Source of the DNA: a virus
Taxonomy: Duplodnaviria; Heunggongvirae; Uroviricota; Caudoviricetes
Direction: 5' to 3' (one strand)
IMG/VR virus record: IMGVR_UViG_3300033233_000013
Location: 50,857-114,856 of that record
Length of the DNA: 64,000 bases
In this document: positions 4,469 to 50,007 of the stretch, one piece after another
Numbering within the stretch: position 1 is the stretch's first letter
How the letters are laid out: each line of letters begins with the position of its first letter
Notes under the pieces: model-generated
What the model saw: the letters and a program-made list of their open reading frames with translations, nothing else
What the model was told of the DNA's origin: nothing
Database searches by the model: none
Made by a program: the position numbers and the translations under genes

Positions 4469-4485
4469 CGTCAATCGTGCCAAGC
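4469..4485 (-). promoter_or_regulatory. Conserved 17-bp motif copy 1 (minus strand CTTGGCACGATTGACGG), candidate late promoter or operator
   Basis: Lies in the intergenic region between the tube and G-chaperone genes. It is repeated at 15340-15356 (one mismatch) and perfectly at 49812-49828 and 49991-50007. Confidence 0.5.
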
Positions 4486-4488
4486 AGA

Positions 4489-4911
4489 TCAGCCGACGAT
4501 CCGCATCGCCTCGAAGACGAGGTTCCGCTGGATCGGATTGTTCGCCGCGACCGACCGATCGCGCGAGACGAGATGGCACTCCTCGGCCGTCTGGCGCGCG
4601 CCCGAGTACTTGTCGATGATGTCGATGTCCACGTAGTCGGCGTTCAACGCATCGGCAGCGCCGCGGCTCGAGAGCTCGAGCATCGAGATCGTCACACGAT
4701 TCGTGTACGCGCCGTCGACGATGCCCTGCGGATTCGGATCGCCGATCGCGTAGAGCGGCCGCGCGCCGGTGTTCTGACTGAGCGACGCGTTCGAGCTCTC
4801 GGCGCTCCGGCCGGTGAGTCCTTCGCCGAGGATCTTCCGCTCGCCCGGGCCGCGCGTGTAAACCTGGACACGATTTCCGGTGCGGTACCTTTCCGCGGCC
4901 AAATTTCCCAT
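4489..4911 (-). CDS. Tail tube protein (or small major tail protein)
   Basis: 140-aa ORF of normal composition, positioned between the 486-aa sheath-like gene and the G/GT chaperone, as in P2/Mu-type tail modules. Confidence 0.5.
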   Translation of the reverse strand: MGNLAAERYRTGNRVQVYTRGPGERKILGEGLTGRSAESSNASLSQNTGARPLYAIGDPNPQGIVDGAYTNRVTISMLELSSRGAADALNADYVDIDIIDKYSGARQTAEECHLVSRDRSVAANNPIQRNLVFEAMRIVG

Positions 4912-4951
4912 TTTCTTGCCCCCTCCCCCTCTCGCTCAGCGCACGCCGGCG

Positions 4952-6412
4952 TCAGACCGTGAGCGGCACCTCGAAGTTGACGACGATGTCCGTTTGCTCC
5001 AGTTGAAGACTCACGGGCACGAAATTAATGGGCGGGATCGGCGTGAACGCGGCCGAGATGTAGAGCACCATCCCGACGAGCTCGCCGTGGATGCTCTCGG
5101 GACGGTACGAGTTGATGCGGACGGCCGCCCGCTGGCGCGTCGCCTCGTTCAGGATCTGATCCATCGCCGCCTCGGCCCGGACGACCGTCGCCCGCGTGCC
5201 CTCGCGGCCGAGCGCCACCTGGCGCATCGCGGCGTTCACCTGGTCCTCGATGCCGTCGACGGCGGCCAAGACGGAGTGCTCGCGGTCGTAGAGGTTGTCG
5301 CTCCCGGTGTAGGTCGAGAGGCCACGCGAGACGAGGAAGGTCGAGGGCGCGTCGGGATCGGACATCGGCGGCGCGACGCCGTTGATGTGGAGCCCGTCGA
5401 CGGGCCCGATCTCGGTATCGGGATCGAGCCGCGCCTCGAGCGAGGCGACGTCGAGATGGCGGAACGTCATCGGCGTCGAGGGATCGAGCGTCGCCGCGAG
5501 CGCCGCATAGCGGGCGGTCGCCAGGTAGCCCGGCTGGCCCTCCATGCCGAGGCCGACGTGCATCATCCGCTTCGCGTTGATGGCCGCCGCATCCGCCTTC
5601 AGGTTGGCGAGCGCCGTCGCCCGGTTCGAGGTCCCATTCCAGTTCTGGAGTCCGCGTCCGAAGAAGCCGCGCAGACGCTTCAGGATCGCGTAGTCGGCGA
5701 GCATCGCCCAGACGGTCGACGACGAGCTCCCGATCGCGATCGTATTCACGCGGATCCCGTCGAGGGCGTGGAGCGCGTCGCTCCAGTCCTGCGTGACGGC
5801 CGCCGGCTCGGTGCCGCCGGTCATCGGCGCGAATGCCGCGTTGACGGGCGTCCCTTGGGCCGTCCAGACCGCCGACACGAGTGCCGAGCGCTGGTTGATC
5901 GCATCCACGAGATCCGCGATCGCGGTTGCGCCCGAATACGGGAAGATCTCGAGGATGGTGCCGGTCGTCGTCGGGATGCTCAGCGTGAGCACGCCGGTCT
6001 CGATCTTCACCTGGATCTGATTGAACTTGAGGCCCCAGCCCTTGCTCGTGAGCGTCGCGAGGAGCGACGGCCCGGTCGCGTTGATCGCGAAGGTCGAGGG
6101 TGTCGACTTGTTGACCGGCACGACCAAGACGGTGCCGGCGCCGCGGTCGAGCTCGCTGAACGGCTTCGCCGCGAACTCCGCCATCGTCAGGAGCTCCGAG
6201 GGCGTGATGAACCGCTGCGGCGAGCCGCTCCCGAGCGGCAGCGACGTTGCCACGCCCGGCGGGAAGAGTCCGGCGCCGACGCCGAGGATCGCGACCGTCC
6301 CGAGCGGTGTGACCGGCCGGAGATCGAGATTGTCGGCGTTGACGGTGAGGAAGACATCGGGGACGGTCGTGAACCGCCCCCCGAACGAAAACCCGATTCC
6401 GAAGCGCGCCAC
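4952..6412 (-). CDS. Probable contractile tail sheath protein (alternatively a large major tail protein)
   Basis: 486-aa ORF (MARFGIGFSFGG...) with good composition. Size and position (sheath-tube-G/GT-tape measure order) support the call. No diagnostic motif was recognised by eye. Confidence 0.45.
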   Translation of the reverse strand: MARFGIGFSFGGRFTTVPDVFLTVNADNLDLRPVTPLGTVAILGVGAGLFPPGVATSLPLGSGSPQRFITPSELLTMAEFAAKPFSELDRGAGTVLVVPVNKSTPSTFAINATGPSLLATLTSKGWGLKFNQIQVKIETGVLTLSIPTTTGTILEIFPYSGATAIADLVDAINQRSALVSAVWTAQGTPVNAAFAPMTGGTEPAAVTQDWSDALHALDGIRVNTIAIGSSSSTVWAMLADYAILKRLRGFFGRGLQNWNGTSNRATALANLKADAAAINAKRMMHVGLGMEGQPGYLATARYAALAATLDPSTPMTFRHLDVASLEARLDPDTEIGPVDGLHINGVAPPMSDPDAPSTFLVSRGLSTYTGSDNLYDREHSVLAAVDGIEDQVNAAMRQVALGREGTRATVVRAEAAMDQILNEATRQRAAVRINSYRPESIHGELVGMVLYISAAFTPIPPINFVPVSLQLEQTDIVVNFEVPLTV

Positions 6413-6413
6413 G

Positions 6414-6665
6414 TTAGTATCCCCCTCCCGTGAACTCCGCGAACGCCGCGTCCCACGCTGCGAACGGCTTGCGCTTCTGGAGCTCGCCCTTCATCCGCAT
6501 CTCATGGCGAAAGCCGGCGACGAGCGTCCGCTGGGGACTCGCCTGCCCGTGCGCCCACTCGTCGAACTCGACCGGAAAGCGCTCCGGCTGCGTGTCGGCG
6601 ACCGGCGCGAGGTCCGCGCGCGCGGACGCGACCGCGGTCGTCTCAGAGGTTGGCTTGGCCGTCAC
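6414..6665 (-). CDS. Hypothetical small virion or tail-associated protein (83 aa)
   Basis: Normal composition. Its stop abuts the sheath gene start. Confidence 0.45.
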   Translation of the reverse strand: MTAKPTSETTAVASARADLAPVADTQPERFPVEFDEWAHGQASPQRTLVAGFRHEMRMKGELQKRKPFAAWDAAFAEFTGGGY

Positions 6666-7494: not shown

Positions 7495-8366
7495 CCGATC
7501 TCCATCCCGACGAGGGTGACGACGTCTGCGCGCGCGGCCTCGCCGACGAGCTCGCGCACCTGGTCCTTGACGAGGCCGACCGTCTGGGCGGCGATGCGGG
7601 CCGGCGCGACCGGAGGAATCCACCAGCCGACGGAGTCCTCCATCATCGTCCGAAACGTCATGTATGTGCCCGACTCCCGGCCGGTGAGCGGGTTCGTCTG
7701 CGTGACTCGCGTGAGACCCTCGTAGAGGCGATTCTTCCAGGTGTACCCAGGCTGGCCGGTCTCCCGCATCGCGCGATCGCGGAGCGCGGCTTGCCGTTCG
7801 ATCGTCCGCTCGCGCTGGCGCGCGGTGAGCTCGCGCGAGAACCACGGGAAGTTCGACACGTCGTAGGGCCGGCTCATGATCGGGCCGGCGGCGTCGAGAC
7901 GGCGCTGCGCGGCCGCGAGGCGCTCGGCGACGGCGGCATTGCGCCGCTGCTTCAGCTGCGCCTTCAGCCGCATGACGGCGAGCGCGTCGCGGTACACATT
8001 GTCGGGGAGCATGCGTCGCGCGCGACCCGAGCCGACGCCGGCCAGTCCCGGCGTCGCATGACGCATCGGGATCGTCAGGTACCGGCGACCGTCCTTCGTC
8101 GTTTTGACGTGCGGACCCGACCAGTCGACATGTGCGGGCATCGAAAATCCGGCATGGCCTTCTTCGAGAAACCGAGCGTGCGGGGATGTATTCGCCACTG
8201 CCGCCGAGAGCGCGTTCCCCTCGTAGGGAAACATCTTCTCGAAGCTCGTGTAGGACGCGTACGCCCCGGTATCAGTGTGCTCGCGCGCCAGATCGCCCCA
8301 CGCGGCGATGATTAGGTCGGGCACGGGCCCTTCCAATGCGGCCTCGATATGGGGAAACTCACGCAT
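7491..8366 (-). CDS. Structural or morphogenesis protein, ~291 aa
   Basis: Internal Met MREFPHIEAALEG... of ORF 7491..8420. Normal composition. Confidence 0.5.
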   Translation of the reverse strand: MREFPHIEAALEGPVPDLIIAAWGDLAREHTDTGAYASYTSFEKMFPYEGNALSAAVANTSPHARFLEEGHAGFSMPAHVDWSGPHVKTTKDGRRYLTIPMRHATPGLAGVGSGRARRMLPDNVYRDALAVMRLKAQLKQRRNAAVAERLAAAQRRLDAAGPIMSRPYDVSNFPWFSRELTARQRERTIERQAALRDRAMRETGQPGYTWKNRLYEGLTRVTQTNPLTGRESGTYMTFRTMMEDSVGWWIPPVAPARIAAQTVGLVKDQVRELVGEAARADVVTLVGMEIG

Positions 8367-8973
8367 GGACGATCGCTCCGCCGGCGAACTGCGGCGCTGC
8401 TCGCAATGCGGCGTCGACAAGCCCCCGAGCGAGTTCTACTGCAAAGCGAATCAGCCGGGCGTTCTTCGCTCGGCGTGCAAGGCGTGCCATCGCGACAGCG
8501 GCAAAGCGTCGACGGAGCGATACAGGGCAAGCGCCAAGGGGATCGCGACGATCAGGCGCTACACGCGGGGCGCGCATCGACGCGAGTACTCCCGCGCGTA
8601 CCATGCGCGCCCCGAGGTGAAGGTTCAGGAGCGCGAACGCGACCGATCGCGCGACCGCAGCGAATCGAATCGCGCGTACCGTCAGCGACCCGAGGTGAAG
8701 GAGAGCCTGCGGCAGTTGGCCGCTGCCGAGCGCGTAAAGAACCCCGCGCGCGGGAGGGCGCACGCCGCAGTCAGCCGGGCGCTGAAAAGCGGTCGCCTTC
8801 AAAGGCCCGCGGTCTGCCCCAAGTGCGGATCGTCGAAATGGCGGATCGAGGCGCACCACCACCGCGGATACGACCGCGAGTTCTGGCTCGACGTCGAATG
8901 GATGTGCCAGCGGTGCCACCTGCACGCTCACAAGTTCCTTGGCGACGGTGGAGTCGGGGCCGCGCATCAGTAG
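8365..8973 (+). CDS. HNH endonuclease with an N-terminal Cys-rich zinc-finger region, antisense insertion in the structural operon
   Basis: Internal Met MDDRSAGELRRCSQCG... of ORF 8275..8973. C-terminal CPKCGSSKWRIEAHHHRGYDREFWLDVEWMCQRCHLHAH is HNH-like. It is a paralog of the plus-strand gene at 45622-46386. Confidence 0.6.
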   Translation: MDDRSAGELRRCSQCGVDKPPSEFYCKANQPGVLRSACKACHRDSGKASTERYRASAKGIATIRRYTRGAHRREYSRAYHARPEVKVQERERDRSRDRSESNRAYRQRPEVKESLRQLAAAERVKNPARGRAHAAVSRALKSGRLQRPAVCPKCGSSKWRIEAHHHRGYDREFWLDVEWMCQRCHLHAHKFLGDGGVGAAHQ

Positions 8974-10508: not shown

Positions 10509-11114
10509 TCAGGGAATCGCGTCTAAAACGACGGAGAGCCCACTACACGTGCCGGTCGCGTTCACCGTGAGCGAGAGCGCCGACCGCGGCGGCACCTCGA
10601 GCGCGTCGTTCGGCCCATTGCCGGTACGGACGTAGAGCCCCTTTCCCGTTTTCCCGAAGAAGTTCAGCACGGCGAGCGTGGTCGTGCCGCGCTTGAGCGT
10701 CGCCTTGCAGACGGTGCCGGTCGCATCGATCGCCGACCCCCCGATGCCGCGGATCCGGTAGGAATTCCCCGCGGGCAGGATCGGGACGACCGTGTTGTCG
10801 GCGACGGCGCCGGCGGGCGCGAGCACGGTGACGAAGCGCGGGGCGGCCGTATCGACCGCGGCGTTCGGCGACGAGTCGCGTTCGCGGCTCTTCTCCATGA
10901 CGGGCGGGATGTCCGCCGTCGGCGTCGCGGTCGGCGTCGCCGTCTTGGTCGGGGTGGCCGTGACCGTCGGTGTCGCGGTGACCGTCGGCGTCGGCGTTTT
11001 CGTGACCGTCGGGGTCGGCGTCACCGTTTGAGCGGATGCCCCTTGCGGCAGGGCACAGATGAGGAGCGCGAGCGCGGCGGCCGCGAGGGCGAGGCGTCGG
11101 AAAGCGTGCGTCAT
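10509..11114 (-). CDS. Signal-peptide protein with a Thr/Pro-rich (TPTPTV) linker and a C-terminal ~110-aa domain
   Basis: MTHAFRRLALAAAALALLICALPQGASA|QT followed by (TPT)n. It sits within the head module. Confidence 0.55.
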   Translation of the reverse strand: MTHAFRRLALAAAALALLICALPQGASAQTVTPTPTVTKTPTPTVTATPTVTATPTKTATPTATPTADIPPVMEKSRERDSSPNAAVDTAAPRFVTVLAPAGAVADNTVVPILPAGNSYRIRGIGGSAIDATGTVCKATLKRGTTTLAVLNFFGKTGKGLYVRTGNGPNDALEVPPRSALSLTVNATGTCSGLSVVLDAIP

Positions 11115-15188: not shown

Positions 15189-15224
15189 CGACTGCCCACA
15201 AAAAAACGACTGCCCACAAAAAAA
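15189..15224 (-). repeat. Two perfect tandem copies of an 18-bp A/T-rich unit (minus strand TTTTTTTGTGGGCAGTCG) in the protease 5' leader
   Basis: Plus strand reads cgactgcccacaaaaaaa twice. This is an unusual A/T tract in a 70% GC genome. Confidence 0.6.
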
Positions 15225-15339
15225 GGGCACCCAGGGCCGCGCCGGTGATTGCCGTCGCCTCCCTCGATGCCCTCGGACCTGCTAGCCCCCCGGGCGTTCT
15301 CGCTGTCGGGGCGCTCTGCTACGGGGTCGGTTGGTCAGC

Positions 15340-15356
15340 CGTCAATCATGCCAAGC
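15340..15356 (-). promoter_or_regulatory. Conserved motif copy 2 (CTTGGCATGATTGACGG, one mismatch)
   Basis: In the 145-bp intergenic region upstream of the protease/scaffold/capsid operon. Confidence 0.5.
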
Positions 15357-15362: not shown

Positions 15363-15569
15363 TCAGGCGCGGGGGATGACGAGACGGCGGGGGCGGGGCG
15401 TGTCAGGGGCAAAGCGGATCTCCCGGCCGCAGGCGGGATTTGGACAGGCAAGGATGACGGCGCCCTCGTCGGTGATCCGCGCGTAGGGCGGCTTCGCGAT
15501 CAGGAGCCCACCCTCGCGCGCCGGCCGCGCGATGGTCTCGCGACACTCGGGGCAGCGACGGTCGATCAC
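15363..15569 (-). CDS. Small zinc-ribbon protein (~68 aa)
   Basis: GTG start on a GTGA overlap. Sequence CPECRETIARPAREGG...CPNPACGREIRF. Confidence 0.4.
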   Translation of the reverse strand: MIDRRCPECRETIARPAREGGLLIAKPPYARITDEGAVILACPNPACGREIRFAPDTPRPRRLVIPRA

Positions 15570-33881: not shown

Positions 33882-36800
33882 TCAGAACGCGCCGCCTTCC
33901 ATGGTCGCACCGCCATCGAGTTGGCCCTCGCGGGCACTCGGGAGTCCCTGGAAGATGCCCGCCACGACGATGCGCCCGAGCCCCGGAAAGCCGGCGGCGG
34001 TGTTGACCGAGGCGGAGGACGACGTTGGGGCGAGACAGAAGACGCTCGCGAGCTGCACCGCGACCTGGCTCCCACTCGGCAGCTCATGCGCGCCGAAGGC
34101 CGTCACGCTCGCGCCCACGATGCCGTTGTCGAGGAAGCAGGGGCGGTTGCGAAACACGGAGCACGTCTCGGCCACGCACGTGCTCCCCGGGCATGCCGAG
34201 TTCGTCGTGCAGAGTCCGCCCGCGTTCGTCCCCGCCGCACACCGCGCGTAAGGCGCACAATCCGCGTCGATCGCGCATTCGACAAACGTCGCCGTGGGGC
34301 CGCAGAGGTTGTCAAACGGTCCGCCCGCACATTGCCCGTTGCCGCCACCGGCACACGTGCTGCCCGGGCACTCAGACGCCTCGGCGCAGACCGCATTCGC
34401 ATTCACGCCCGCGATGCACCGCCCATCAATGGCCGAGCAGTGTCCATCATCGCAGGCGTTCGGTGCCGTCGCGAGGCCGGGCACGATACACGCCCCGCTC
34501 GGACACTCGCTCGAGACGCTGCACGGCGTCCCGGCGTTGGTCCCCGATTGACACCGACGCCCGCCGCAGACGGTGGCCCCGACCGCGGTGCAATCGGCAT
34601 TGCTCGCGCACACCGTGGCCGCTGCGTTGTTGCAGGTGTCGCAGAAGCACGCGAGGGATGTGGATCCGACCGCGCGGCACGGCGGGCTCGCGCCGGTCAG
34701 CGCCCGGGTCTCATGATGCGTCGAGAGCGCGAGCGGAAGCGTCATCTTCCCGATGGTGCCGCTCGGTGGGCAGTCGAGACTCGTCGTGCCGAACCAGCCG
34801 TTCGGGTGCGTGCCGTTGGCATCGCAGGCAAGGCCGATACGGGGACCGTCGGAACAGGTGCCGTCCTGCACCCCGTCATCCTCGGCCACGTCGCCGACGC
34901 AGAGCGGACAGGGCGCATCGGTGTGGAGGCCGTTCGCCACGTCGGCGATGGCCGTCCCCGCGACTTCGGCATCCCCGGTGTTGAGGTTCACGGTGCCGGA
35001 GAGATTCGTCGCGAAGTGGACGAGCGCGCAGACCGGCACGCTCCCCGCGCTGAACGGAATCGGCCCGCCGAAGAAGTCGCGGCAGACGTCGCCGGCCGCG
35101 CAGCCGCCCGTGTCGCCGCATCGGGTCTGCGGCTGATCCACGCACCGCCGGGTCGCGAGCTGGCGGAAGGGTGGCGGGGTCGCTTGCGGCGGCGCAAAGG
35201 GATTCGTCGTGAGCCCCGTCACCTGGCAGACGCCGCACGGCACTGTCGGGTTGTCGCAGTGCTGCACCCGGAGCGTCAGGGACGCGTTGCCGCTGAGCGT
35301 CTGCCCGTGTGCCGTGCCCGTCCACCCGAGGTCGAGGTGGGCATTCTCGGCCGGGTTGTTGATGAACGAGAGCTGTCCTGGACAGGAAATCGGCGGGCCG
35401 GGGGGTGCCGTCGCGGTCGCCGTCGGCGTTGGCGTCACCGTCTCAGTCGGGGTCGCGGAGAGCGTCGGTGTTGGCGTCTCCGTCGCGGTCAGTGTGGGCG
35501 TCGGCGTCTCCGTGACGGTCGGCGTCGGCGTCGCTGTCTTCGTCGGCGTGGCCGTCACGGTCGGCGTCGGCGTGAGCGCGGGCGTCGCGGTCAGCGTCGC
35601 GGTCGCCGTGACCGTGGGCGTGGGAGTAGCGGTCACCGTCGGCGTCGGCGTGACTGTGATCGTCGGCGTGGCACTCGGCGTCGGCGTCCCGGAGGCGACG
35701 CAGAGGTCGACGTACGGATACGCATCGTGGAGCCCGTTGCCCTCGATGACGGTGCTGTTCGTGATGAGGTCGACGCCGTTGCCTGCCGTTGGCTCCCCGC
35801 CGCTGACCCACGCGCGGAAGGCGACTTTCGACGCCGGCACGAAGTTGTCGAGGTTCGTGAGCGTGAGCACGTTCCACGCAAACGTGGTCAGGCTATTGAT
35901 CGTGACCGAGGCCGCGACCGGATCGGTACTCCCGCTCTCTTCCTTCACGTAGTCGCTGCAACTGAACGTCGTCGGCGGGCTCGGCCAATACTTCAGCACG
36001 AAGTTCCGCACCCCGTCGAAGTTGTCGCGGTTCGTGACACCATAGACGAACTTCGCGGCCGCCACGTGATGCCCGGATGGCACGGCCGTCGTCGTATCGA
36101 GCCGCATCAGCATCACGTCGGTGTACCAGTTGTCATAGTCGCACGCGGACTGATTGCAGACGTGCGCGTGGTAGACCTCGTGCGCGAAGAGATAGGGAGG
36201 ATTGTTCGCGCCGCCGATGAAGCTCGTACAGCGCGTGATCTGCGCATACGAGCCCATGCCAGTACACGTTCCACCCGGACACCCGCTGCTGTTCGTGCAG
36301 GCGCCGTTATTGTTGGTCCCGCCCGTGCATTTCGGCTGATTCGTACACGCCCCGCTCGGACATTCACTGCTCGTCACACACGCCGTGCCATTGTTTGCGC
36401 CGCCGTAGCAATACGTCGGGGAGTAGCCGCGCACGTACGCCTTATCGGCCGTCCCGGCGAGCACGACGCGCTGATAGTCCTCGCCGGCATTGCACGAGAT
36501 CATCGGTGTTGGCGTGGGCGTGACGGTCGGCGTTGGTGTCACGGTGAGTGTCGGCGTTGGCGTTTCCGTGACCGTGGCCGTGGGGGTGGGTGTCGCCGTC
36601 AAGGTTGGCGTGGGCGTCAGAGTCGGCGTCTTCGTCGGCGGGGGCGTGGCGGTGATCGTGGGTGTCGGTGTGGGCGTCGGCGTCACCGTGGGGGTTGGCG
36701 TTGTCGTGGGTGTCGGCGTCACGGTCGGCGTCGGCGTGAGAGTCTGCGTCGGCGTCGGCACTTCGAGCGGCGTGGATGTGATGGTTGGCGTCGCCGAGAG

Positions 36801-38189
36801 CGTGGGCGTCGCGGTCGGTGTTGGTGTCGTGGTCTTCGTCGGCGTCGGCGTGAGGGTCGGCGTCGGGGTCAGCGTGGGCGTCGGCGTGGCGGTGCGCGTC
36901 GGCGTTACGCTCGGGGTCGGGGTGCCGGTCGGCGTCACACTCGCCGTCGCGACCGGCTGGTAATCGCACATCAGCCACGCGTCTTCGATCGTGAGCACGG
37001 CATTCGTCGTCGTGTTCCGCGCGCCGATTTCTGTCTCCGCCAAGATCGCCACGGGGCTCGGCGCGAGCGGGGGCGTGGCTCCCGGACGTGGTGTTGGCGT
37101 CCAACACGGTCCCACGGCGGCCCCCGAACCGCAGTCGTCGTAATAGGCATCGCTCGTCGTGAATGTCCGGGTGTTCAGGAGTTCGGTCACGAGGTCGCGC
37201 CGAATGATTCGGTGCACGCCCGTCGTCGCGGCCCGCTTCCCATACACCTGCACCTTGCAGGCATTCAGCACCGCATTGGCTGGCATCGCGTCGGCATCGA
37301 CGGTGAAGGGGCGGACGCGCATGCCTTGGCTCCGCGTCGCCGTCACGCCGGAGTTGCGATTCGTCCCGGTGTTCGGCGGCGTGTCCGACCACTCCTTCCC
37401 GGCATAGTTTGGCGTCGTGTTCGGCACCGGCGACCACTGGTTGTAAAACGGCGTCGGTCCCGGCGACGGATAGCCTTGCCGCGCAATTACTTTGCCGTTG
37501 GCCGGGAACGCCGCATCATCGACGTAGAGATCATCGTGCGTCGCATGCACGAGCGCGCCACTCGTCGCCGTGCCGCCCCCAAACGCCACGCGGTCCACGT
37601 TCGTCGAGCCGGTATTGAGCGTCGCCACGCTGGTCAGGATCGTGACGTCGTCGAGCTGCACAACCACCTGGCCGACCGTGGTCGACCGCACCACCTTGAG
37701 GTTGATCGCGTAGAACCGCCCAGCCGTAATCGGGAACTCCGTCATCGAAGGAATGGCCGCGCCCGTCCGCTGCCGCGCCTCGAGCGCGATCGTCCCGTCG
37801 GTGTGATAGTTCACCTGCACACCACCGATAAAGACGCTCGTCGCATCCTCGCACCACACGAGAAAGCTGCTCACGGCGGCACCCGTCGGCGGCGTCACGA
37901 CGTCGATGCGAACCGGGTCGCGGACGAAGCAGTTGAGCGTGATGCCGAGGCCCGTCGGCGAGCGTGCCACGTCCGCCGCGCCCGTTGACTGGTAACTGTA
38001 GCTGCCGCTCCGCACGAGCGTGGGATCGCTGACGATGGTCTTGATCTGTCCCGAGAAGGACGAGAACTCCCCGAGGCTGCCCGTCTCCATGCCCGCGAAC
38101 CAGCGCGGCGCCGCCTCGGCCGACGTCGCCACGAGGCAAAGGGAAAGCGCAAGCGCCGCCGCGAGGACCGTGCTACGCTTGCCCGTCAT
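33882..38189 (-). CDS. Giant secreted protein (~1435 aa): signal peptide, jelly-roll-like N-domain, two long Thr/Pro linkers, an HExxH (HEVYH) segment, and C-terminal arrays of Cys-rich CxxxxC repeats
   Basis: Internal Met MTGKRSTVLAAALALSLCLVATSAEA|APRW. Repeats such as NAGTPCSVSSECPSGAC and SNADCTAVGATVCGG resemble Myxococcus-type Cys-rich repeats. Confidence 0.6.
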   Translation of the reverse strand: MTGKRSTVLAAALALSLCLVATSAEAAPRWFAGMETGSLGEFSSFSGQIKTIVSDPTLVRSGSYSYQSTGAADVARSPTGLGITLNCFVRDPVRIDVVTPPTGAAVSSFLVWCEDATSVFIGGVQVNYHTDGTIALEARQRTGAAIPSMTEFPITAGRFYAINLKVVRSTTVGQVVVQLDDVTILTSVATLNTGSTNVDRVAFGGGTATSGALVHATHDDLYVDDAAFPANGKVIARQGYPSPGPTPFYNQWSPVPNTTPNYAGKEWSDTPPNTGTNRNSGVTATRSQGMRVRPFTVDADAMPANAVLNACKVQVYGKRAATTGVHRIIRRDLVTELLNTRTFTTSDAYYDDCGSGAAVGPCWTPTPRPGATPPLAPSPVAILAETEIGARNTTTNAVLTIEDAWLMCDYQPVATASVTPTGTPTPSVTPTRTATPTPTLTPTPTLTPTPTKTTTPTPTATPTLSATPTITSTPLEVPTPTQTLTPTPTVTPTPTTTPTPTVTPTPTPTPTITATPPPTKTPTLTPTPTLTATPTPTATVTETPTPTLTVTPTPTVTPTPTPMISCNAGEDYQRVVLAGTADKAYVRGYSPTYCYGGANNGTACVTSSECPSGACTNQPKCTGGTNNNGACTNSSGCPGGTCTGMGSYAQITRCTSFIGGANNPPYLFAHEVYHAHVCNQSACDYDNWYTDVMLMRLDTTTAVPSGHHVAAAKFVYGVTNRDNFDGVRNFVLKYWPSPPTTFSCSDYVKEESGSTDPVAASVTINSLTTFAWNVLTLTNLDNFVPASKVAFRAWVSGGEPTAGNGVDLITNSTVIEGNGLHDAYPYVDLCVASGTPTPSATPTITVTPTPTVTATPTPTVTATATLTATPALTPTPTVTATPTKTATPTPTVTETPTPTLTATETPTPTLSATPTETVTPTPTATATAPPGPPISCPGQLSFINNPAENAHLDLGWTGTAHGQTLSGNASLTLRVQHCDNPTVPCGVCQVTGLTTNPFAPPQATPPPFRQLATRRCVDQPQTRCGDTGGCAAGDVCRDFFGGPIPFSAGSVPVCALVHFATNLSGTVNLNTGDAEVAGTAIADVANGLHTDAPCPLCVGDVAEDDGVQDGTCSDGPRIGLACDANGTHPNGWFGTTSLDCPPSGTIGKMTLPLALSTHHETRALTGASPPCRAVGSTSLACFCDTCNNAAATVCASNADCTAVGATVCGGRRCQSGTNAGTPCSVSSECPSGACIVPGLATAPNACDDGHCSAIDGRCIAGVNANAVCAEASECPGSTCAGGGNGQCAGGPFDNLCGPTATFVECAIDADCAPYARCAAGTNAGGLCTTNSACPGSTCVAETCSVFRNRPCFLDNGIVGASVTAFGAHELPSGSQVAVQLASVFCLAPTSSSASVNTAAGFPGLGRIVVAGIFQGLPSAREGQLDGGATMEGGAF

Positions 38190-38364
38190 GCGCACCCTGC
38201 TCACCGTGGCGCTGATGCTCGCGTGCGCGGCCGTCGCCGGACACTTCCTGACGCCGGCCGAGAAGGTCGACCCCGAGCTGCAGGCCGCGATGGAACTCGG
38301 CACCGTCCTCCCGGAGCACTGCATCCGCCAGGACACCACGGGCTGGCATTTCGTCTGCCCCTAG
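38188..38364 (+). CDS. Small secreted peptide (58 aa)
   Basis: MRTLLTVALMLACAAVAGHF... Its start shares a CATG with the divergent giant gene. This call is weak. Confidence 0.3.
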   Translation: MRTLLTVALMLACAAVAGHFLTPAEKVDPELQAAMELGTVLPEHCIRQDTTGWHFVCP

Positions 38365-41129: not shown

Positions 41130-44100
41130 CACTCCCGCCCGACGCAGAGGTAGTTGATGACTCCCGCCGCCGTAAATGCCGTCGGCTGAAGTGTCGTCAC
41201 ACTTGACGAGGTCGCCCCGTAGTTCGTGATGATGAGCGACGTCGTCGAGGTCTGGGCACGCAGGATGCCGCCGAGCGATGGCGGCGCCGTATCCCACGAG
41301 AGCGTACAGGCGGGCGCGTTCGCGAATGTCCCTGGCAACCCAAAGGTCAGCGTGCACGCGCTGACGGAGCCGCCACCGCCAATCGTGATCCTCCCAGCCG
41401 TGTTGGTGCCGACAAGGCTCCCGTTCGGGCTCGACCCACACGAGCTGATGGTCGGCGCCGCGCCGCCCGTGGCGATCCGCGACGTCGCATTGCCGTCGAG
41501 GTAGACGACACCCGCGCCCCCGACCGCCCCACCGCCCCCGACCTTGGCCGTGAGAATGACACTCGACCCGTTCCAGCCGATGCCGCCGATGACTGACGCA
41601 TTGCCACCCGCACCGAGACCACCGCCTGCGCCCCCTTGCACAACCGCCGGACCACCAATGCCGCCGTTTTGCCCCCCGCTGCCGGCGCCACCCTGCAGCG
41701 TGAGCGTGCCGCCGGTGCCGACGGGGGAGCCGGCGGCTGCGCCCGCCGCGATCGTGAGCCCGCCGGCTGTGCCGTTCGCCGTCAGATTCCGCGGCTCGAC
41801 GAGAATGGTATGTGTCGCGCCCGTGCCGCCTTCTTTAAACGTCAGATTCCCCGCGATCTGATCATTGGCCCCGCAGATGCGTATGGGTGTGACCGTGGCC
41901 GTGGGGGTGGGCGTCGCTGCCGTTGCGGTCGGCGTCGCGCTCGTCGGCGTCGGCGTGGCGGTGGGCGTCGCCGTGGCCCCGACGTTCTCCGGCCCATTGA
42001 CCTGCGTCACGCCCAGCAGGTTCGTCCCTGCCGACCCATCCAGCGTGCCTCCGCTGGCGATCGTCATCGTCGCCCCGCTGTCGATCGTCAGCGACTTGCC
42101 CGTCAGGATGTGCACGGGACAGTCCTGGTTCAGCACCGTCGACCCCGCACAGGTCTGATTCAGCTTGTTCCCGCTATTGAAGTATTTCGTGCAGAAGTCC
42201 GAGTCGGTGCCCTGACAGCGCGAGACGTCGTCGGTCGCGATCACGGTCGGGATCTGCGAGTTCAGAATCGTCGCCCCGCCGACCTTCACCACGGTCGAAT
42301 CGAGGCTCATGTTCGCCTCGCCGCTCGGCGATTCCGTCACGTCGAAGTCGGCCGCCGTGAAATCCAGCGTGCCGGCGTTCGCCGCGACCGTCGCGTCACC
42401 TTCCTGCACGATCAGTTTCGGTGTCGGGCTCGTCGTGGGTGTCGCCGTCACCGTCGCAGTCGGAGTCGGTGAGACAGTCGGGGTCGGCGTCGGATGGCAC
42501 ACGAACCCTGCGGCCGTCGTGTCTACGCCATAGGGGCACGCCCCCGTCGGGATCACGCGCCACGTCGTCGTGCCCGTGATGGCATCCGTCACGACCTCGA
42601 ACGCTGGCACGACAGACGGTGCCGACGCCGGATGCACGATCGTGTAGGGCGCGGCGAAGCCGGCATCGGGCGAACAGTCCTTGCGCGTATCGGTGCCGGC
42701 TAACGGCGGCTCCTTCAAGGTGAAGCAGTTGCCCGAAGCCTGCGCCAGACAGTCCAGTTTGCCGTTGATGATCGTGCAGTCTGACGGCCCGATCGAGAGC
42801 CCATCGGCGGATGGGAAGACCGCGATCGCATACGTCGCGACCGGCGACGGCGGCGCCAAGATATACGGCGAGTTCGACGGCGTCGGATCCGGCGTCGGCG
42901 TGGGCGTCGCCGAGGGCGCCGGCCCGTCGCAGCGCCAGCCGGCGCTCGTCCGATAGGCGATCGCGCCCGGCCCCGAGCCGGCGCACGGCTCGGTGTTCTT
43001 CGCGCAGTCGGTGCAGGCGACCTGGCTCCCAGCGGCCGCGTTCTCGAGCGGGCCGCCCGACGTGAGATCGGCGAACGTCGCCGGCGGGAGACCGCCGATT
43101 GTGAAGTTGCCCGACGAGCCCGACGCGGCGTCGATCGGCTTCGCGCAGTTCGTGCGGTTGAATCCGATCGTGATGCCGAGGACGGTCTCCAGCCGGATGC
43201 ACTCCCGCCCAGTCGTCGTCTCCCACGAGATCACGTTCCCGCGAATGTCGACCCGGTTGGCGCCGGTACCGCCGGTCACGTCGCGGAGCCAGACGCCCTT
43301 CGCGTCGTTCGCGGTCGCGAGGTTCGTGATGCTGTTGGCCTCGATCAGCCCGCCGACGAGCTCGCGGAGCACGATCGCCGAGGAGTCGAGCGACGACAGC
43401 GCGTTTCCCCAGCCGCCGCCCGTGATGCGGTTTCCGACGATCGCGACGTTCCGCGCCGGGTCAAGCGCCATGGCCCCTGCGGCCGACTGGCCCTGGACGA
43501 GGATCGCGTTGCCGCCCTGGCGGTCGAGCTCGTTTCCGAGGAGGCTCGTCTCGAGCGGCCGCTGCGTCGCCTCGATGCCGACCAGGTAGCCACGGACGGT
43601 GTTGTGGCTGACGGTGACATCGGTTTCCGCGATCGCGGTGCAGGTCGCCGCCGTGCAGGTGCCAGACGGACACTGCGACGCGACGGTGCAGACGGCCGCG
43701 TTGTTCGCCCCGCCGACGCACGAGCTCCCCGGGCAGTCGCCGTTGGCGTCGCAGTTGCTATCCGGGCTCGAGCCGTGGGCGCACGCGGCCGTGCGGACGA
43801 GCGCGATGCCAGAACCCGTCGCGACACACTTCTCCCCTGAGACCGACGTGCAGTCGGTATCGCCGTAGCACTCCTGTGCCGAGGACGTGCACTGCGCATC
43901 GCTCGCACACGCGGCGCCGCCAACCGCGCACGTCGTCCCGCCGCCGCCGGTGCAGCGATTCGTGCAGGCGCCCGGCTTCGTGAGGACGTTGCCGCTGATC
44001 TCGGTATCCTGGCAGGCGCCGCAGGTGATGCCGTTCCCGGTCGCGGTATTGACGGCGCGGATCGTGTTCCCCTGGATCTTCGCCTGCTCGACCGGCGCCT

Positions 44101-45049
44101 CTTTCTTGCCGTTCAGCGTGATGCCGTTCGAGTTGCCGTCGAGCTGGTTCCCGCGGACGATGAGGTCGCGAAAGGGTCCGCCGGTGTCGTCGGGCGGCTC
44201 GAGCCGGATCCCGCCATTGCCGTTGCTGGTGATCGTGTTGTCGAGGATCCGGCAACGCTGGCAGTCGGCGCGGATGCCGTGGCGGTCGTTCGCGGTCGCT
44301 GTGACCCCGCGGATGCGGATCAACGACGGCACGGCCTGGCCCGGCGTCGCGACGCTCACGCTGATCCCGTCGCCGTCGGCGTGCGTGACGGTGACGTCCT
44401 CGATCGCGATGTTCGTTGCGCCGTCGACGATGCGGATGTCCGGGCCCTGATCGTCGGTGCCGGTCGCTCCCCGGTTCGCCGTGTTGCCGTCGATCGTGCC
44501 GTGGCCGCGGATCCGCACGTCGGCGATACCAGCGATGGAAAGCGGGCGGAGGGAGTGACTGACGCCGTTCGCCGCCTTCAGCGTGCCCTCGATCGTGAGC
44601 CGCTGGCTGGCGTTCAGCGTGAGGCCGGTGCCGACGACACATGTGACCCCGCCCGGGAGGAGCACCACCTTCGCGCCGGCGGTGTTCAGGGTGGCTTGGA
44701 TGGCCGTCGCATCATCGGTCGTCCCGTCGCAGACCGCGCCCTGCTCGACGAGGTTCACGGTCGTGATGGGCGTGGCCGTCGCGGTCGGCGTCGGAGTGGC
44801 AGTCAGGGTTGGCGTCGCCGTTTTCGTCGGGGTCGCCGTCTTGGTCGCGGTCGGGATCGGGGTGATGCGAACGATCCGCGCCTTCTGCGCGCTGTCGCGT
44901 TGGACGTCGAGCCCGCTCGGCTTGTCGATGATGATCTTCGCGGGATCATGGACCGCGGTCGTGCCGTCGCTGTTCTCGATCGTGAGCTGCGCCCGCGCGA
45001 GCGGGACCAGCAGGACGAGGAGCGCGAGGGCGAGCGCGACGCGCTTCAC
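41129..45049 (-). CDS. Secreted right-handed beta-helix protein (pectate-lyase superfamily N-terminus) with PT linkers, Cys-rich modules and a Gly-rich C-terminal region (~1306 aa)
   Basis: GTG start on a GTGA overlap gives MKRVALALALLVLLVPLARAQ. A VCDGTTDDATAIQATLNTAG motif and parallel beta-helix repeats (GNTIRAVNTATGNGITCGAC..., IRGNVISW). C-terminal GGAGSGGQNGGIGGP... Confidence 0.6.
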   Translation of the reverse strand: MKRVALALALLVLLVPLARAQLTIENSDGTTAVHDPAKIIIDKPSGLDVQRDSAQKARIVRITPIPTATKTATPTKTATPTLTATPTPTATATPITTVNLVEQGAVCDGTTDDATAIQATLNTAGAKVVLLPGGVTCVVGTGLTLNASQRLTIEGTLKAANGVSHSLRPLSIAGIADVRIRGHGTIDGNTANRGATGTDDQGPDIRIVDGATNIAIEDVTVTHADGDGISVSVATPGQAVPSLIRIRGVTATANDRHGIRADCQRCRILDNTITSNGNGGIRLEPPDDTGGPFRDLIVRGNQLDGNSNGITLNGKKEAPVEQAKIQGNTIRAVNTATGNGITCGACQDTEISGNVLTKPGACTNRCTGGGGTTCAVGGAACASDAQCTSSAQECYGDTDCTSVSGEKCVATGSGIALVRTAACAHGSSPDSNCDANGDCPGSSCVGGANNAAVCTVASQCPSGTCTAATCTAIAETDVTVSHNTVRGYLVGIEATQRPLETSLLGNELDRQGGNAILVQGQSAAGAMALDPARNVAIVGNRITGGGWGNALSSLDSSAIVLRELVGGLIEANSITNLATANDAKGVWLRDVTGGTGANRVDIRGNVISWETTTGRECIRLETVLGITIGFNRTNCAKPIDAASGSSGNFTIGGLPPATFADLTSGGPLENAAAGSQVACTDCAKNTEPCAGSGPGAIAYRTSAGWRCDGPAPSATPTPTPDPTPSNSPYILAPPSPVATYAIAVFPSADGLSIGPSDCTIINGKLDCLAQASGNCFTLKEPPLAGTDTRKDCSPDAGFAAPYTIVHPASAPSVVPAFEVVTDAITGTTTWRVIPTGACPYGVDTTAAGFVCHPTPTPTVSPTPTATVTATPTTSPTPKLIVQEGDATVAANAGTLDFTAADFDVTESPSGEANMSLDSTVVKVGGATILNSQIPTVIATDDVSRCQGTDSDFCTKYFNSGNKLNQTCAGSTVLNQDCPVHILTGKSLTIDSGATMTIASGGTLDGSAGTNLLGVTQVNGPENVGATATPTATPTPTSATPTATAATPTPTATVTPIRICGANDQIAGNLTFKEGGTGATHTILVEPRNLTANGTAGGLTIAAGAAAGSPVGTGGTLTLQGGAGSGGQNGGIGGPAVVQGGAGGGLGAGGNASVIGGIGWNGSSVILTAKVGGGGAVGGAGVVYLDGNATSRIATGGAAPTISSCGSSPNGSLVGTNTAGRITIGGGGSVSACTLTFGLPGTFANAPACTLSWDTAPPSLGGILRAQTSTTSLIITNYGATSSSVTTLQPTAFTAAGVINYLCVGRE

Positions 45050-47396: not shown

Positions 47397-47414
47397 CGTC
47401 GGACTCCTTTCGGG

Positions 47415-47852
47415 TTACGCGGGCGCCTCGAACCGGCGGAGGTTCTCGACGCGAAAGCCGTGCTGGAGGGGAAATTCCCCGCCGGTGTGCACGACCCGGA
47501 GCAGCATCACGTGCACCTCGTAGAGCGACGCGCGATCGAGGATTGGGACCAGGCGCGCGGGGAACGTGAGGAAGAGCTTCAAGACCGTCGGATCATCCGG
47601 GTCGGTCGGATCGACCACGTACCGCGCGCCATAGACCGCCTTCATCGGCGGCAGATCGCTCGCCACGAAGATCGGGATGTCTTCCTGGCTTCGGATCGTG
47701 TTCCCGGCGTCGTCGTAGACATCGGCGTTGTAGAGCGCGACGAGCGTGATCGTGAGGAGGGCCGCGAGCGGCACCGGGAGGCGCGTGTGCGTGTCGAGGA
47801 GCGGCGCCGACCACTCGACATCCGCGCCCTCTGGCACGTCGGTCACGATCAC
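47415..47852 (-). CDS. Hypothetical protein (145 aa)
   Basis: MIVTDVPEGADVEWSAPLLD... Its start overlaps the portal stop. Confidence 0.45.
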   Translation of the reverse strand: MIVTDVPEGADVEWSAPLLDTHTRLPVPLAALLTITLVALYNADVYDDAGNTIRSQEDIPIFVASDLPPMKAVYGARYVVDPTDPDDPTVLKLFLTFPARLVPILDRASLYEVHVMLLRVVHTGGEFPLQHGFRVENLRRFEAPA

Positions 47853-49750
47853 GGCCAGGCCTCGTCGGGGAGGTGGCGGATCTGGACGACGAGCGGCGGG
47901 TCCGCTTCCGCCTTCTGGAGGCGCCCGCCCGTCGGGCGCGCCGCGCTCGTGCCGCCGCGGCCGCGCGCGGCGTCGCTGCCGCGATTCGTGGCCGGTGCCC
48001 CTGCGTCACGCGCATAGGGAAGCGGCGCCTCACTCGCAGGGAGGCCATCGCCGATCCTCCCCGGTGGTGCCCCCTCGCCGCCGGGCTGCTCTGGCGGCGC
48101 GAGCTTCCCCTGCTGCTGGAGGCTCGTGATGTACAGGCTTTGGAGCGCGGGGTTCACGGGCGCGCCGCCGATCAGCGGGTCCTCGTGCTTGGCTTCGCCG
48201 TCGATCGTCAGCATCCGATCCACGGTGAGCGTCAGCTTCTGGCGCTCGTGCTTCCGCGCTTCGTCTTCGGGGAAGAGACCGACGGGGGTGAGCCGATACT
48301 TCGTCGTGAGCTGGCTCACGAGGTTGTCGTTGACGAGCCCGATCCAGAAGAGCATCAGCGGGATGAGGCCGCGGTCGCGCGAGGACTGGAGCTTCTCGGT
48401 CGTGTCCTTCCCCGAGAGCGAGGAGGTATGCACGGAGAACGATTCGAAGTTCAGCTCCTCCGGGGCGAGCCCGAAAAACGCGCAGCCGAGCGACACGAGG
48501 AAGGTGAGGAAGCGGACCATGAACATCTCCGCTTCCGCCATGTTGTCGATCGGCGTCCACGCCGCGCCGCCCTCGGTCTTGGAGCGCGCGACCATGATCG
48601 GGATGTTCCACTGATTCGACGCCCCCGAGAGGAGGAGCTGCCACTTCTGCTGCAGGTCCAAGACCTGGCGCTGATTGTAGTCGCCGAAGAGCGTGAAGAA
48701 GCCGCGCGGGATCGCCTTCTTGTCGACGAACGTGGAGTTCATCGCGAAAAGGTTCAGGTACGCGGTGGCCGCGCGGACGAAGTGCTCGAGCTCGGCATCC
48801 CCATACCCACCGAGGTAGATCGAGCTCCGCGGGTTGCGGACTTCATAGATGAGCTCGTCGCGCTCGAAGCCGACAAACGGCTGGCGGGTCAGCGGGTCGA
48901 TCTGCACGCCGACGATCGCGTCGTTCCCCTCATAGCCGTCTTCGAACGCGAGCCGGATCGTCGTGAAGTCGAGGTTGTGCCAGCCGAGGAGCTTCCCGCT
49001 TCGTGCCCGCACCGTCTCGATGGGGCAGGCATCGGCCGTCAGCGTGTCGGCGATCATCGCCGCGACGAAGCCGGGGAAGGTGCGCAGACGCTGGTTCCAG
49101 CGCCGCTCGAGCGGATCGGTGGTGGCACCGGAGCTCTCGATCAGCGCCTCGAGCCGCGCGATCTCTTTCTGGTCGGCCTTCGTCAGCCGCTCGCCGTCGT
49201 TCCGGACGAACCGCACGCCGAGCGGGTTGTTGTCGTCTTCCCGGTAGAACCGCGCGAACGGCACCACCTGGTGGACGCGCGTCTGAATCATCGCCTGGAT
49301 GATGTCGACGCGGCTCGCCATCATGCGGAGAAACTCGAACCCGCTCGTCACGGTTGGCTTCTCGGCGAACGGATCGGCGGTCTGCCCGATCACGCCGAGC
49401 TCGTGGACGTGGAGCACCGCGTGGTGGCGCGCGCGGCGCGGATCGTCGGCGTACTTCCCGGGATAGGTCGCGGCGTAGAGCGAGGGGCTCAAGACGACGG
49501 ACTTCGCGAGGCTCTGGTGCTGGAAGCGCTCCCAGCTGTCGCGGATCTCGTCGGGATCGACGACGGCGACGCCGTGCGCGATCTGATCGCGGAGGCTCGC
49601 GAGGATCTCGCGCCCGACGGCCTGCTCCTCGTCGGCGGGGAGGTCGGTCCGTCCTGCCGTCTCGAAGAGCCCCGCGAGTCGTCCCACCGTCCCCCGCCCT
49701 TGTGTGGGACAGGCCCGACGCGCGAGCGCCCGCGCGCTCGAAGGCCGCAC
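47849..49750 (-). CDS. Probable portal protein
   Basis: 633-aa ORF between the terminase region and the MuF-containing head module. Gly/Pro-rich, basic C-terminal tail. The exact start is uncertain. Confidence 0.5.
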   Translation of the reverse strand: MRPSSARALARRACPTQGRGTVGRLAGLFETAGRTDLPADEEQAVGREILASLRDQIAHGVAVVDPDEIRDSWERFQHQSLAKSVVLSPSLYAATYPGKYADDPRRARHHAVLHVHELGVIGQTADPFAEKPTVTSGFEFLRMMASRVDIIQAMIQTRVHQVVPFARFYREDDNNPLGVRFVRNDGERLTKADQKEIARLEALIESSGATTDPLERRWNQRLRTFPGFVAAMIADTLTADACPIETVRARSGKLLGWHNLDFTTIRLAFEDGYEGNDAIVGVQIDPLTRQPFVGFERDELIYEVRNPRSSIYLGGYGDAELEHFVRAATAYLNLFAMNSTFVDKKAIPRGFFTLFGDYNQRQVLDLQQKWQLLLSGASNQWNIPIMVARSKTEGGAAWTPIDNMAEAEMFMVRFLTFLVSLGCAFFGLAPEELNFESFSVHTSSLSGKDTTEKLQSSRDRGLIPLMLFWIGLVNDNLVSQLTTKYRLTPVGLFPEDEARKHERQKLTLTVDRMLTIDGEAKHEDPLIGGAPVNPALQSLYITSLQQQGKLAPPEQPGGEGAPPGRIGDGLPASEAPLPYARDAGAPATNRGSDAARGRGGTSAARPTGGRLQKAEADPPLVVQIRHLPDEAWP

Positions 49751-49763
49751 GGACCCCGCGGCG

Positions 49764-49790
49764 CCGAGCCGCCCCGTCCGGGCGGCTCGG
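49764..49790 (-). other. Perfect 11-bp stem / 5-nt loop hairpin (CCGAGCCGCCC-ggacg-GGGCGGCTCGG) between motif copy 3 and the portal start
   Basis: Inverted repeat read directly from the sequence. No U-tract follows. Confidence 0.5.
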
Positions 49791-49811
49791 TTATCGGGAG
49801 GGGTGGTCGAG

Positions 49812-49828
49812 CGTCAATCGTGCCAAGC
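49812..49828 (-). promoter_or_regulatory. Conserved motif copy 3 (CTTGGCACGATTGACG)
   Basis: About 60 bp upstream of the portal start. A further GTTGACGG half-site lies at about 49837-49852. Confidence 0.5.
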
Positions 49829-49990
49829 CGGAACGGCCGTCAACCGCAATGCTGGGCGCGCCCGGTAGACCCCCCGGCCCACTGCTTCCGGGCGCGCCCC
49901 GCTTTCCACCGCCCCTCCGCCACCACCACGTTGTCTGCCCATCCAACGTGAGCACGTCGGGGCGCAGGCTTACCCATGCGACCTACGCGA

Positions 49991-50007
49991 ACGTCAATCG
50001 TGCCAAG
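49991..50007 (-). promoter_or_regulatory. Conserved motif copy 4 (CTTGGCACGATTGACG)
   Basis: About 180 bp upstream of copy 3. It overlaps the 3' end of a weak 68-aa ORF. Confidence 0.5.

Follow-up and report, generated by a model that had tools for sequence, protein, structure and literature searches.

A 17-bp motif stands, always in the orientation of the genes, at the heads of structural modules of an uncultured tailed phage, and a phage-specific late promoter or activator site is the most likely and best-supported explanation of its sequence pattern. The motif was analysed in a 64,000-nt stretch (hereafter the window) of the Caudoviricetes record IMGVR_UViG_3300033233_000013, which is about 69% GC and encodes a myovirus-type virion module. 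An earlier note, made from the letters alone, had proposed such a site, and this general reading is backed by the location of the copies, their conservation, the pattern of a variable spacer and a second element locked in register behind it. We go one step further and propose, with about even confidence, that the 17-bp block would make up the upstream half of a late promoter, specific to this lineage and working at the level of DNA.

Copies and conservation of the motif

On the minus strand, which is the gene strand, the unit reads GCTTGGCA(C/T)GATTGACG in four full copies. The 16-mer CTTGGCACGATTGACG is found on this strand without mismatch at 4469-4484, 49812-49827 and 49992-50007, and with one mismatch (C>T) at 15340-15355; an invariant 5' G before each 16-mer extends the unit to the 17-mers 4469-4485, 15340-15356, 49812-49828 and 49992-50008. 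The mismatch scan reproduced the identity noted before between 4469-4485 and 49812-49828 and the single differing base at 15340-15356, and shifted one copy by a base, from 49991-50007 to 49992-50008. Five matches to CTTGGCACGATTGACG within three mismatches occur in the window, against a shuffle mean of 0.68, and none of 100 shuffles reached five. The 3-mismatch match at 44488 is inside a gene, and the same holds for all matches with three or four mismatches. Copies that differ at two bases are absent, which makes the motif family discrete.

Each full copy has a characteristic position. Copy 1 (GCTTGGCACGATTGACG, 4469-4485, minus) begins 3 nt past the stop codon of the tail-tube gene, at a distance of 155 nt from the next gene downstream (3892-4314), and copy 2, the C>T variant (GCTTGGCATGATTGACG, 15340-15356, minus), begins 6 nt past the stop codon of a zinc-ribbon gene (15363-15365) and 165 nt upstream of the prohead protease start (15175). 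Two copies precede the portal gene: copy 3 (49812-49828, minus) lies 125 nt upstream of the portal start (about 49687), and copy 4 (49992-50008, minus) lies another 180 nt upstream, its TGA forming the stop codon of a doubtful 68-codon open reading frame (ORF). A partial copy 5 consists of the left half only (GCTTGGCACCGT, 33777-33788, minus) and lies 55 nt upstream of a 373-aa gene (32601-33722); CTTGGNANNNT has 6 matches where 1.55 are expected. This fifth copy is real, as had been suspected, but it lies downstream of the repeat-protein gene rather than upstream, and precedes the 373-aa gene. As described earlier, all copies are in gene orientation, and the five lie in the few large intergenic gaps; copy 4 overlaps the stop of the doubtful ORF.

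Every gene preceded by the motif is on the minus strand, and these are the portal gene, the protease/scaffold/capsid genes, the tail genes after the tube and the 373-aa gene. Judged from the gene calls, copies 1, 2, 3 and 5 occupy the widest gaps between genes (174, 187, about 305 and 159 nt), in a window of which we estimate no more than about 2-3% to be intergenic. The upstream part of the window (about 50-64 kb), which is largely non-structural, yielded no copy, and neither did the 6 kb that extend the window at the low-coordinate end.

The window matches a 117,568-bp ENA contig (k141_1651292 of ERZ27248239), and its relatives are short contigs from related samples with proteins 83-93% identical. 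Contig L034 begins with the copy 2 motif in the same place, T variant included. In L045, copy 1 is unchanged and the hairpin behind it is retained, despite an 80-nt insert between the tube stop codon and the motif. Both portal-upstream copies (3 and 4) are unchanged in L057, where another gene lies upstream and the 60 nt that follow copy 4 are different, and copy 4 is likewise unchanged in L058 between a different upstream gene and a different 60 nt downstream. Because these copies persist unchanged amid altered flanks, the motif is, judged from the alignments, under strong purifying selection and moves with the downstream block. The 33 matches to the motif in IMG/VR are single copies in unrelated contexts, and the metagenome matches, among the matches listed (at least 119), are single copies on sequences that share no blastn similarity with the window. 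It is specific to this lineage.

The gap between the tube gene and the next gene has further features. In contig L043 (1243-1440) the entire junction and the downstream gene are swapped for unrelated sequence without the motif, which shows a module exchange exactly at the tube/next-gene boundary. An 8-mer, TGCAACGC, is invariant in this gap in the window (4410-4417, minus), L045 (1706-1713), L042 (744-751) and L037 (19031-19038), and identity between the tube or capsid proteins of these carriers is as low as 42-61%. In the window and in L042 the 8-mer makes up the loop of a stem whose arms differ in sequence. A consensus structure for the tube/next-gene leaders, drawn from four relatives, was unconvincing, and only TGCAACGC was invariant among them.

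Second element, promoter geometry and competing explanations

When three orthologue pairs were aligned from the first motif base, substitutions numbered 0 at positions 1-17, 9 at positions 18-33 and 0 at positions 34-60, with no indels. Under uniform substitution, the chance that nine changes would all fall in the spacer is (16/60)^9, or about 7e-6. The block beyond the spacer opens with a short candidate -10 element. It is CGTA in copy 1 (4449-4452, minus) and copy 2 (15320-15323, minus), in both cases 16 nt past TTGACG at motif positions 34-37, and in copy 1 it coincides with the hairpin loop. Copy 3 has CGATA (49792-49796, minus) with TA at 36-37, the register of copies 1 and 2, whereas copy 4 (GGTA) and copy 5 (CTA) have TA at 37-38. 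A TA that starts at position 36 in three copies and 37 in two was matched by 0 of 200,000 shuffles, and CGTA at one offset in copies 1 and 2, despite their unrelated spacers, has a shuffle p of 0.0014. After the second element, every full copy continues with nn(n)GAGCCGC or GAGCGCC. In a more distant relative, L037 (capsid 42% identical), the sequence CTGACG-N16-CGTAGCA stands directly after the tube gene; this is the geometry of window copy 2 but without the left half, and no repeated motif above chance was found in L037.

Two conserved blocks separated by a spacer that is constant in length but free in sequence make the signature of a two-part promoter, and from this pattern we infer promoter function and a start site. 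TTGACG (motif positions 12-17) would serve as a -35-like element, and the invariant GCTTGGCAYGA would be the site of a phage-encoded activator or of an extended contact with RNA polymerase. Following the 16-bp spacer, whose length is fixed and whose sequence is free, CGTA/CGATA/GGTA with nnGAGCCGC or GAGCGCC would act as an atypical -10 element plus start region, nearer to the -10 of extracytoplasmic function (ECF) or other alternative sigma factors than to TAnnnT of the housekeeping type. The start of transcription would lie about 45-48 nt past the first motif base, and the transcripts would run into the portal, head and post-tube tail modules. In the head operon, the transcript would have to pass a terminator-like hairpin with U7 before the protease gene, and expression there would probably also need read-through or antitermination. 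The late-promoter reading is favored because the copies stand at the heads of structural modules, are perfectly conserved, show a conserved/variable/conserved pattern and carry a register-locked second element. The geometry in L037, the repeated elements in distant relatives and two nearby candidate DNA-binding proteins support it as well.

An ordinary housekeeping promoter was rejected. The alternative view of TTGACG as a -35 hexamer, also raised in the earlier note, is plausible in that it matches TTGACA at 5 of 6 positions in copies 1-4, but no housekeeping -10 follows at 16-19 bp: a hexamer with A2 and T6 is missing at this distance from all 10 copies in the window and its relatives, and a CGTA-like sequence is found there instead.

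Several observations weigh against the two-part promoter. The candidate -10 hexamers (GTACTG/TACTGA, GTAGCA/TAGCAG, ATAACC/TAACCG and GTAAGC/TAAGCC) all lack a terminal T, and sigma-70-type factors normally need T at the last -10 position. Neither copy 1 nor copy 2 was called in a scan for consensus promoters, and the window yielded no complete sigma gene. Copy 4 is perfect in L057 and L058, yet CGTGA follows at N13 and TA at N22, so that the two-part geometry is lost; copy 5, for its part, lacks TTGACG. The transcript from copy 1 would start inside the 3' arm of a perfect hairpin, which leaves that hairpin unexplained as RNA. Lastly, the paralogous copies may share ancestry, which would inflate the shuffle statistics.

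Four other explanations were weighed against the two-part promoter. A self-contained, -35-independent extended -10 promoter of the form TGgCAYGAT remains a serious rival, possible in our judgment but improbable. In it, TG would stand at -15/-14, followed by g, a CA(C/T)GAT hexamer and TGACG as discriminator; the 3' edge of the block would mark the start of transcription, and the GC-rich stem-loops and CGTA...GAGCCGC would lie in the 5' leader. TGGCAYGAT fits TGnTAnnnT except at the first hexamer base, with A-11, A-8 and T-7 present, and the only variant of the motif (C>T) falls at the least constrained hexamer position. The combination of TG with an A-11/T-7 hexamer is found in five of five window copies, as TG-g-CACGAT, CATGAT or CACCGT, and the partial copy 5 (TGGCACCGT) is among those that retain TG, A-11 and T-7. 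There is also no -35-like hexamer upstream of the copies. In distant relatives a -10 hexamer without a -35 directly adjoins a conserved 8-mer (21 of 22 cases), and ahead of the protease gene in L048 this hexamer reads CACGAT, as it does in the window. The displaced downstream partner in L057 and L058, where copy 4 stays perfect beside replaced sequence as expected if the block is sufficient alone, and the lack of TTGACG in copy 5 likewise favor a self-sufficient extended -10 block. This geometry, however, leaves unexplained the fixed CGTA/TA distance in the paralogues, the L037 site (TGACG-N16-CGTAGCA with no left half) and the invariance of TGACG, and its -12 position is C rather than T. In the choice between the two geometries, the present sequences incline us about halfway towards the two-part promoter and leave the extended -10 a clearly smaller share. 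Less probable still is an element that works as RNA, in which the transcribed motif and its stem-loop would control read-through into the next module, in the manner of a boxA/boxB nut site or a processing or stability element. The position of the motif 3-6 nt past stop codons (copies 1 and 2) or overlapping one (copy 4), the stable stem-loop after each copy and the sole change in hairpin 1 in L045, which still pairs (as G-U only), are in keeping with such a role, and some antitermination is likely anyway since head-gene transcripts must pass a terminator-like hairpin. Yet the hairpins vary between copies in sequence and in arm order, and they lie at different distances (9, 21 and about 95 nt), unlike a nut boxB, and the 80-nt insert before the motif in L045 indicates that the motif goes with the downstream block. 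A fixed-length free spacer with a register-locked short element is a promoter-type pattern, and neither an N-like or other antiterminator nor an Rfam match was recognised in the window.

The remaining two explanations concern the identity of the DNA site. A short conserved linker for module exchange, marking a recombination or mobile-element boundary without a role in expression, is improbable to a high degree. Mosaic breakpoints do abut the motif (the 80-nt insert in L045, the replacements around copy 4 in L057 and L058, and the L043 junction), but a regulatory site that is conserved can be expected to turn secondarily into a point of recombination. The copies are not accompanied by a recombinase, an endonuclease or terminal inverted repeats; they occur in a single orientation and only before structural modules, and the second element would have no role in such a linker. 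A sigma-54 (-24/-12) promoter can be given almost no weight. As had been noted before, TTGGCACG fits the -24 element (TTGGCAC in copies 1, 3, 4 and 5, TTGGCAT in copy 2), while nothing resembling TTGC occurs at the required spacing: the -12 position (TGGCAC-N5) reads ACGG in copies 1-4, and GCAC is out of register in copy 5. No copy, including copy 5, has GC at the fixed 10-bp spacing, and no Sigma54_activat domain or AAA+ enhancer-binding activator was found among the window proteins scanned. The -12 element and the spacing rule this promoter type out.

Leaders, candidate factors and known systems

The two perfect stems reported in the earlier note were recovered, both on the minus strand. 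The stem at 4438-4462 has 10 bp and a 5-nt loop (GCGCGGCUCA CGUAC UGAGCCGCGC; -20.8 kcal/mol, z = -4.2) and is retained in L045, where an A>G change still pairs as G-U. The stem at 49764-49790 has 11 bp and a 5-nt loop (CCGAGCCGCC C GGAC ... GGCGGCUCGG; -27.1 kcal/mol, z = -4.6), and its upper 7 bp are retained in L057. Between copies 4 and 3 lies a 12-bp GC stem (GGGCGCGCCCGG...CCGGGCGCGCCC, 49854-49899, minus), which is unchanged in L057 while its loop varies. A G-rich tract, CGTGGTGGTGGCGGAGGGGCGGTGG, stands at 49906-49930 just before this GC stem and is kept in L057 though the preceding 60 nt are replaced. The 46-codon ORF at 49976-49836, between the same two copies, was rejected as a gene; since its frame is broken in L057, the region is read as non-coding. 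Upstream of copy 3, L057 (725-790) carries an array of GGTTGAC/GTCAACC repeats that includes a perfect palindrome, GTCAACCGGTTGAC, and the window has a single GGTTGACGG (49837-49845) in its place. The L057 array may be an operator or terminator array.

The leader behind copy 2 is of another kind. A long imperfect hairpin at 15218-15274 (minus; -35.6 kcal/mol, z = -3.9) is followed by U7 in the manner of an intrinsic terminator and lies about 45 nt upstream of the protease start. The structure is kept in L034, which gains a G-C pair through two apical substitutions (C>G, A>C). A hairpin with a T-run just before the protease gene was also found in L037 (8037-8075), L039 (8300-8345), L040 (8232-8285) and L048 (about 8325-8380), in each case downstream of the promoter-like element of that locus. 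In L046, L049 and L050 the promoter-like element abuts the start codon instead, and L050 has a terminator-like hairpin upstream of the element. There is no room for a promoter after the 15218-15274 hairpin, and head-gene transcripts must therefore read through it. The arrangement suggests a regulated read-through at the head operon, with a logic like that of lambda Q/PR'/tR'. At the U-run of this hairpin begins an exact 18-nt tandem duplication, TTTTTTTGTGGGCAGTCG x2 (15189-15224, minus), shortly before the ribosome-binding site of the protease gene; the unit is present only once in L034 (TTTTCTTTTGGGCAGTCG).

Two small genes near the motif encode candidate factors for it. A 74-aa, four-helix helix-turn-helix (HTH) protein is encoded at 50340-50564 (minus), 330 nt upstream of copy 4, and its AlphaFold2 (AF2) model has a predicted local distance difference test (pLDDT) score of 84. 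Its top Foldseek matches are region 4 domains of ECF sigma factors and LuxR/GerE proteins (template modeling, or TM, score about 0.7, E 0.06-0.3), and its Pfam match to Sigma70_r4_2 (E = 0.16) is below threshold. The description of this protein as region-4-like thus agrees with a predicted fold like that of sigma region 4 or a LuxR/GerE HTH, whereas its link to the motif is one of proximity only; from the model and this position we infer a candidate factor. The other regulator named in the earlier note, a sigma-like product of the 480-aa ORF at 29936-31378, found no support in Pfam, PHROGs, NCBIfam or PDB sequences. A second candidate is a 68-aa CxxC...CxxxxC zinc-ribbon protein encoded directly upstream of copy 2 (15363-15569, minus). 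Small CPxC...CPxC zinc-ribbon genes occupy the same position in L037 (about 7514-7813), L039 (8037-8240), L040 (7945-8151) and L048 (8054-8254). Members of this family have 66-68 aa, and weak matches to Ogr_Delta (PF04606) were seen in 2 of 5 (best E = 9e-4), with none for the window protein. Neither this gene nor the terminator-like hairpin with U7 behind copy 2 figured in the earlier note.

The layout can be compared with several known systems. T4 MotA-box middle promoters, Mu Mor/C-dependent promoters and P2/186 Ogr/B-dependent late promoters combine a host-type core element with a site for a phage activator. The likeness lies in a short motif before late or structural operons, in one orientation, with one good and one poor core element, and in small phage DNA-binding proteins nearby, including a Cys4 zinc ribbon of roughly 70 aa like P2 Ogr. 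In the window, however, the good element is the -35-like one and the -10 is poor, opposite to what is seen in Mu, P2 and T4 middle promoters. Unlike P2, the window has an invariant 17-bp block without dyad symmetry and no TGT-N12-ACA site: a P2-type dyad of this kind near -55 is absent, and the 45 nt upstream of the copies show no conservation. No homologue of MotA, AsiA or Mor/C was found. Promoters of the B. subtilis sigma-W type read TGAAAC-N16-CGTA, and the usual ECF -35 contains AAC. The GAC(G)-N16-CGTA geometry of copies 1 and 2 and of L037, a -10 without TAnnnT and the sigma-region-4-like fold encoded 330 nt upstream of copy 4 resemble this class. Against the likeness, the -35 TTGACG lacks AAC, the exact CGTA is found in only 2 of 4 copies (CGATA in copy 3, GGTA in copy 4), and the 74-aa protein lacks region 2 and does not qualify as a sigma factor; the window showed no ECF sigma gene.

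Thermus phage P23-45 uses extended -10 (TGn) promoters for its middle and late genes. TG-g-CAYGAT in every copy, including the partial one, with no -35 upstream, is similar, but the first hexamer base is C, and the window has an additional invariant TGACG and a register-locked downstream element. Modifiers of host RNA polymerase of the P23-45 gp39/gp76 type did not turn up, though no search aimed at them was made. At copy 2 the order of a small regulator gene, a promoter-like element, a leader of about 120 nt, a terminator-like hairpin with U7 and late genes resembles lambda Q/PR'/tR', and it recurs in L037, L039, L040 and L048. Unlike lambda, the window has several promoter copies rather than one, and only copy 2 has a U-tract terminator; no small protein next to the motifs matched a Q-family antiterminator in Pfam, PHROG or NCBIfam. 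Near-identical blocks of 17-23 bp in one orientation before groups of genes are also typical of T7-type promoters, but a second element 16 bp downstream is not a T7 feature, and the large ORFs of the window showed no RNA polymerase (RNA_pol) domain.

Distant relatives, genome context and meaning

Eight more distant loci with capsids 35-43% identical to that of the window (L039, L040, L046, L048, L049, L050, L051 and L053) carry a different repeated element, GTCGTGAC, in 1-4 same-strand copies per locus. The carriers are prophages in Oxalobacter paraformigenes, an Azospirillum metagenome-assembled genome (MAG) and Microvirga lupini, together with several metagenomic contigs; example sites are 4889, 8354 and 15665 in L050 and 596, 8276, 12020 and 14322 in L048. 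Exactly 2 nt past GTCGTGAC stands a hexamer with A2 and T6 in 21 of 22 cases, against a background of 2-5%, and in 11 of the 22 an ATG follows 5-7 nt past the hexamer with no Shine-Dalgarno sequence. One GTCGTGAC element always precedes the protease-scaffold-capsid operon. By their sequence these elements look like -35-less promoters, many of them apparently for leaderless late mRNAs. In the window itself, GTCGTGAC occurs inside genes only, at chance level and without a following -10. We know of no described equivalent of this promoter family, and a literature search for GTCGTGAC returned only primer sequences. Repeated promoter elements in equivalent positions show a family trait.

The clade comprises widespread, uncharacterised myoviruses of roughly 100 kb and prophages in Alpha-, Beta- and Gammaproteobacteria and other phyla. 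Tentatively, the motif and GTCGTGAC-N2-(-10) may mark an undescribed late-transcription system, with a lineage's own promoter element, a phage-encoded factor, many leaderless late mRNAs and a terminator-gated head operon. The factor in such a system, as part of the same tentative whole, might be the stand-alone sigma-region-4-like protein or the conserved Ogr-like zinc-ribbon protein. One of the GTCGTGAC carriers has a feature of its own: L039 (18160-18260) contains two repeats like those of type I-E clustered regularly interspaced short palindromic repeats (CRISPR) (GTGTTCCCCGCAC..GCGGGGAT.A) that flank one spacer of about 32 nt. Their intergenic position behind the tail-tube module, on a contig that is phage-like, suggests a mini-array carried by a phage.

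In transcription order, on the minus strand, the window begins with an SNF2 helicase (61537-63327), followed by a methylase fusion (55340-58990) and an SPFH protein gene, and then the large terminase (51269-53362). Small genes, including that of the 74-aa HTH protein, lead to copies 4 and 3, after which come the portal (47849-49687) and large virion protein genes. The repeat-protein gene (33882-38303) precedes partial copy 5, the 373-aa gene and further unknown genes. Between the region of the 373-aa gene and copy 2 lie genes for a RadC-InPase-RelA/SpoT polyvalent protein, a 1787-aa SNF2 helicase and the 68-aa zinc-ribbon protein. Copy 2 is followed by the prohead protease, scaffold and major capsid protein and, farther on, the sheath and tube (4489-4911) genes, and copy 1 by a 140-aa gene and then tape-measure and baseplate genes. 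Long 6/12/18-nt periodic GC-rich repeats, GTCGGCGTC-like on the plus strand, run through 33882-38303 (a 1473-aa ORF), 10885-11070 and 41900-44850, and the proteins that contain them are presumably repeat-rich virion or fibre proteins. On the plus strand at 2741-3591, two opposite-strand genes (94 and 189 aa) lie between the genes at the tail-chaperone position and the tape-measure gene, where the surrounding gene calls are otherwise all on one strand.

The nearest isolated phages by capsid, Pseudomonas phage Dolphis and Bordetella phage PHB04, are 30-36% identical, and the window has no near match in the phage collection. Searches with capsid peptides returned nothing in IMG/VR, searches with sheath peptides nothing in JGI metagenomes, and Rfam and tRNA scans of the window gave no matches.

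The motif is most likely the late promoter of this lineage, unusual in layout within a common kind of phage feature. Repeated phage-specific promoter motifs are already familiar, and the present evidence extends that known theme and opens no new one; judging from the sequences of the relatives, a broader novelty at the level of the whole phage family is conceivable. Should it be confirmed, the motif would mark out the late transcription units of an uncultured lineage of phages without a close isolate, would aid the annotation of its relatives and would point to two small candidate regulators. The layout itself, with an invariant 17-bp block, a non-canonical -10 element and a terminator in the leader of the head operon, would inform how phage factors retarget RNA polymerase.

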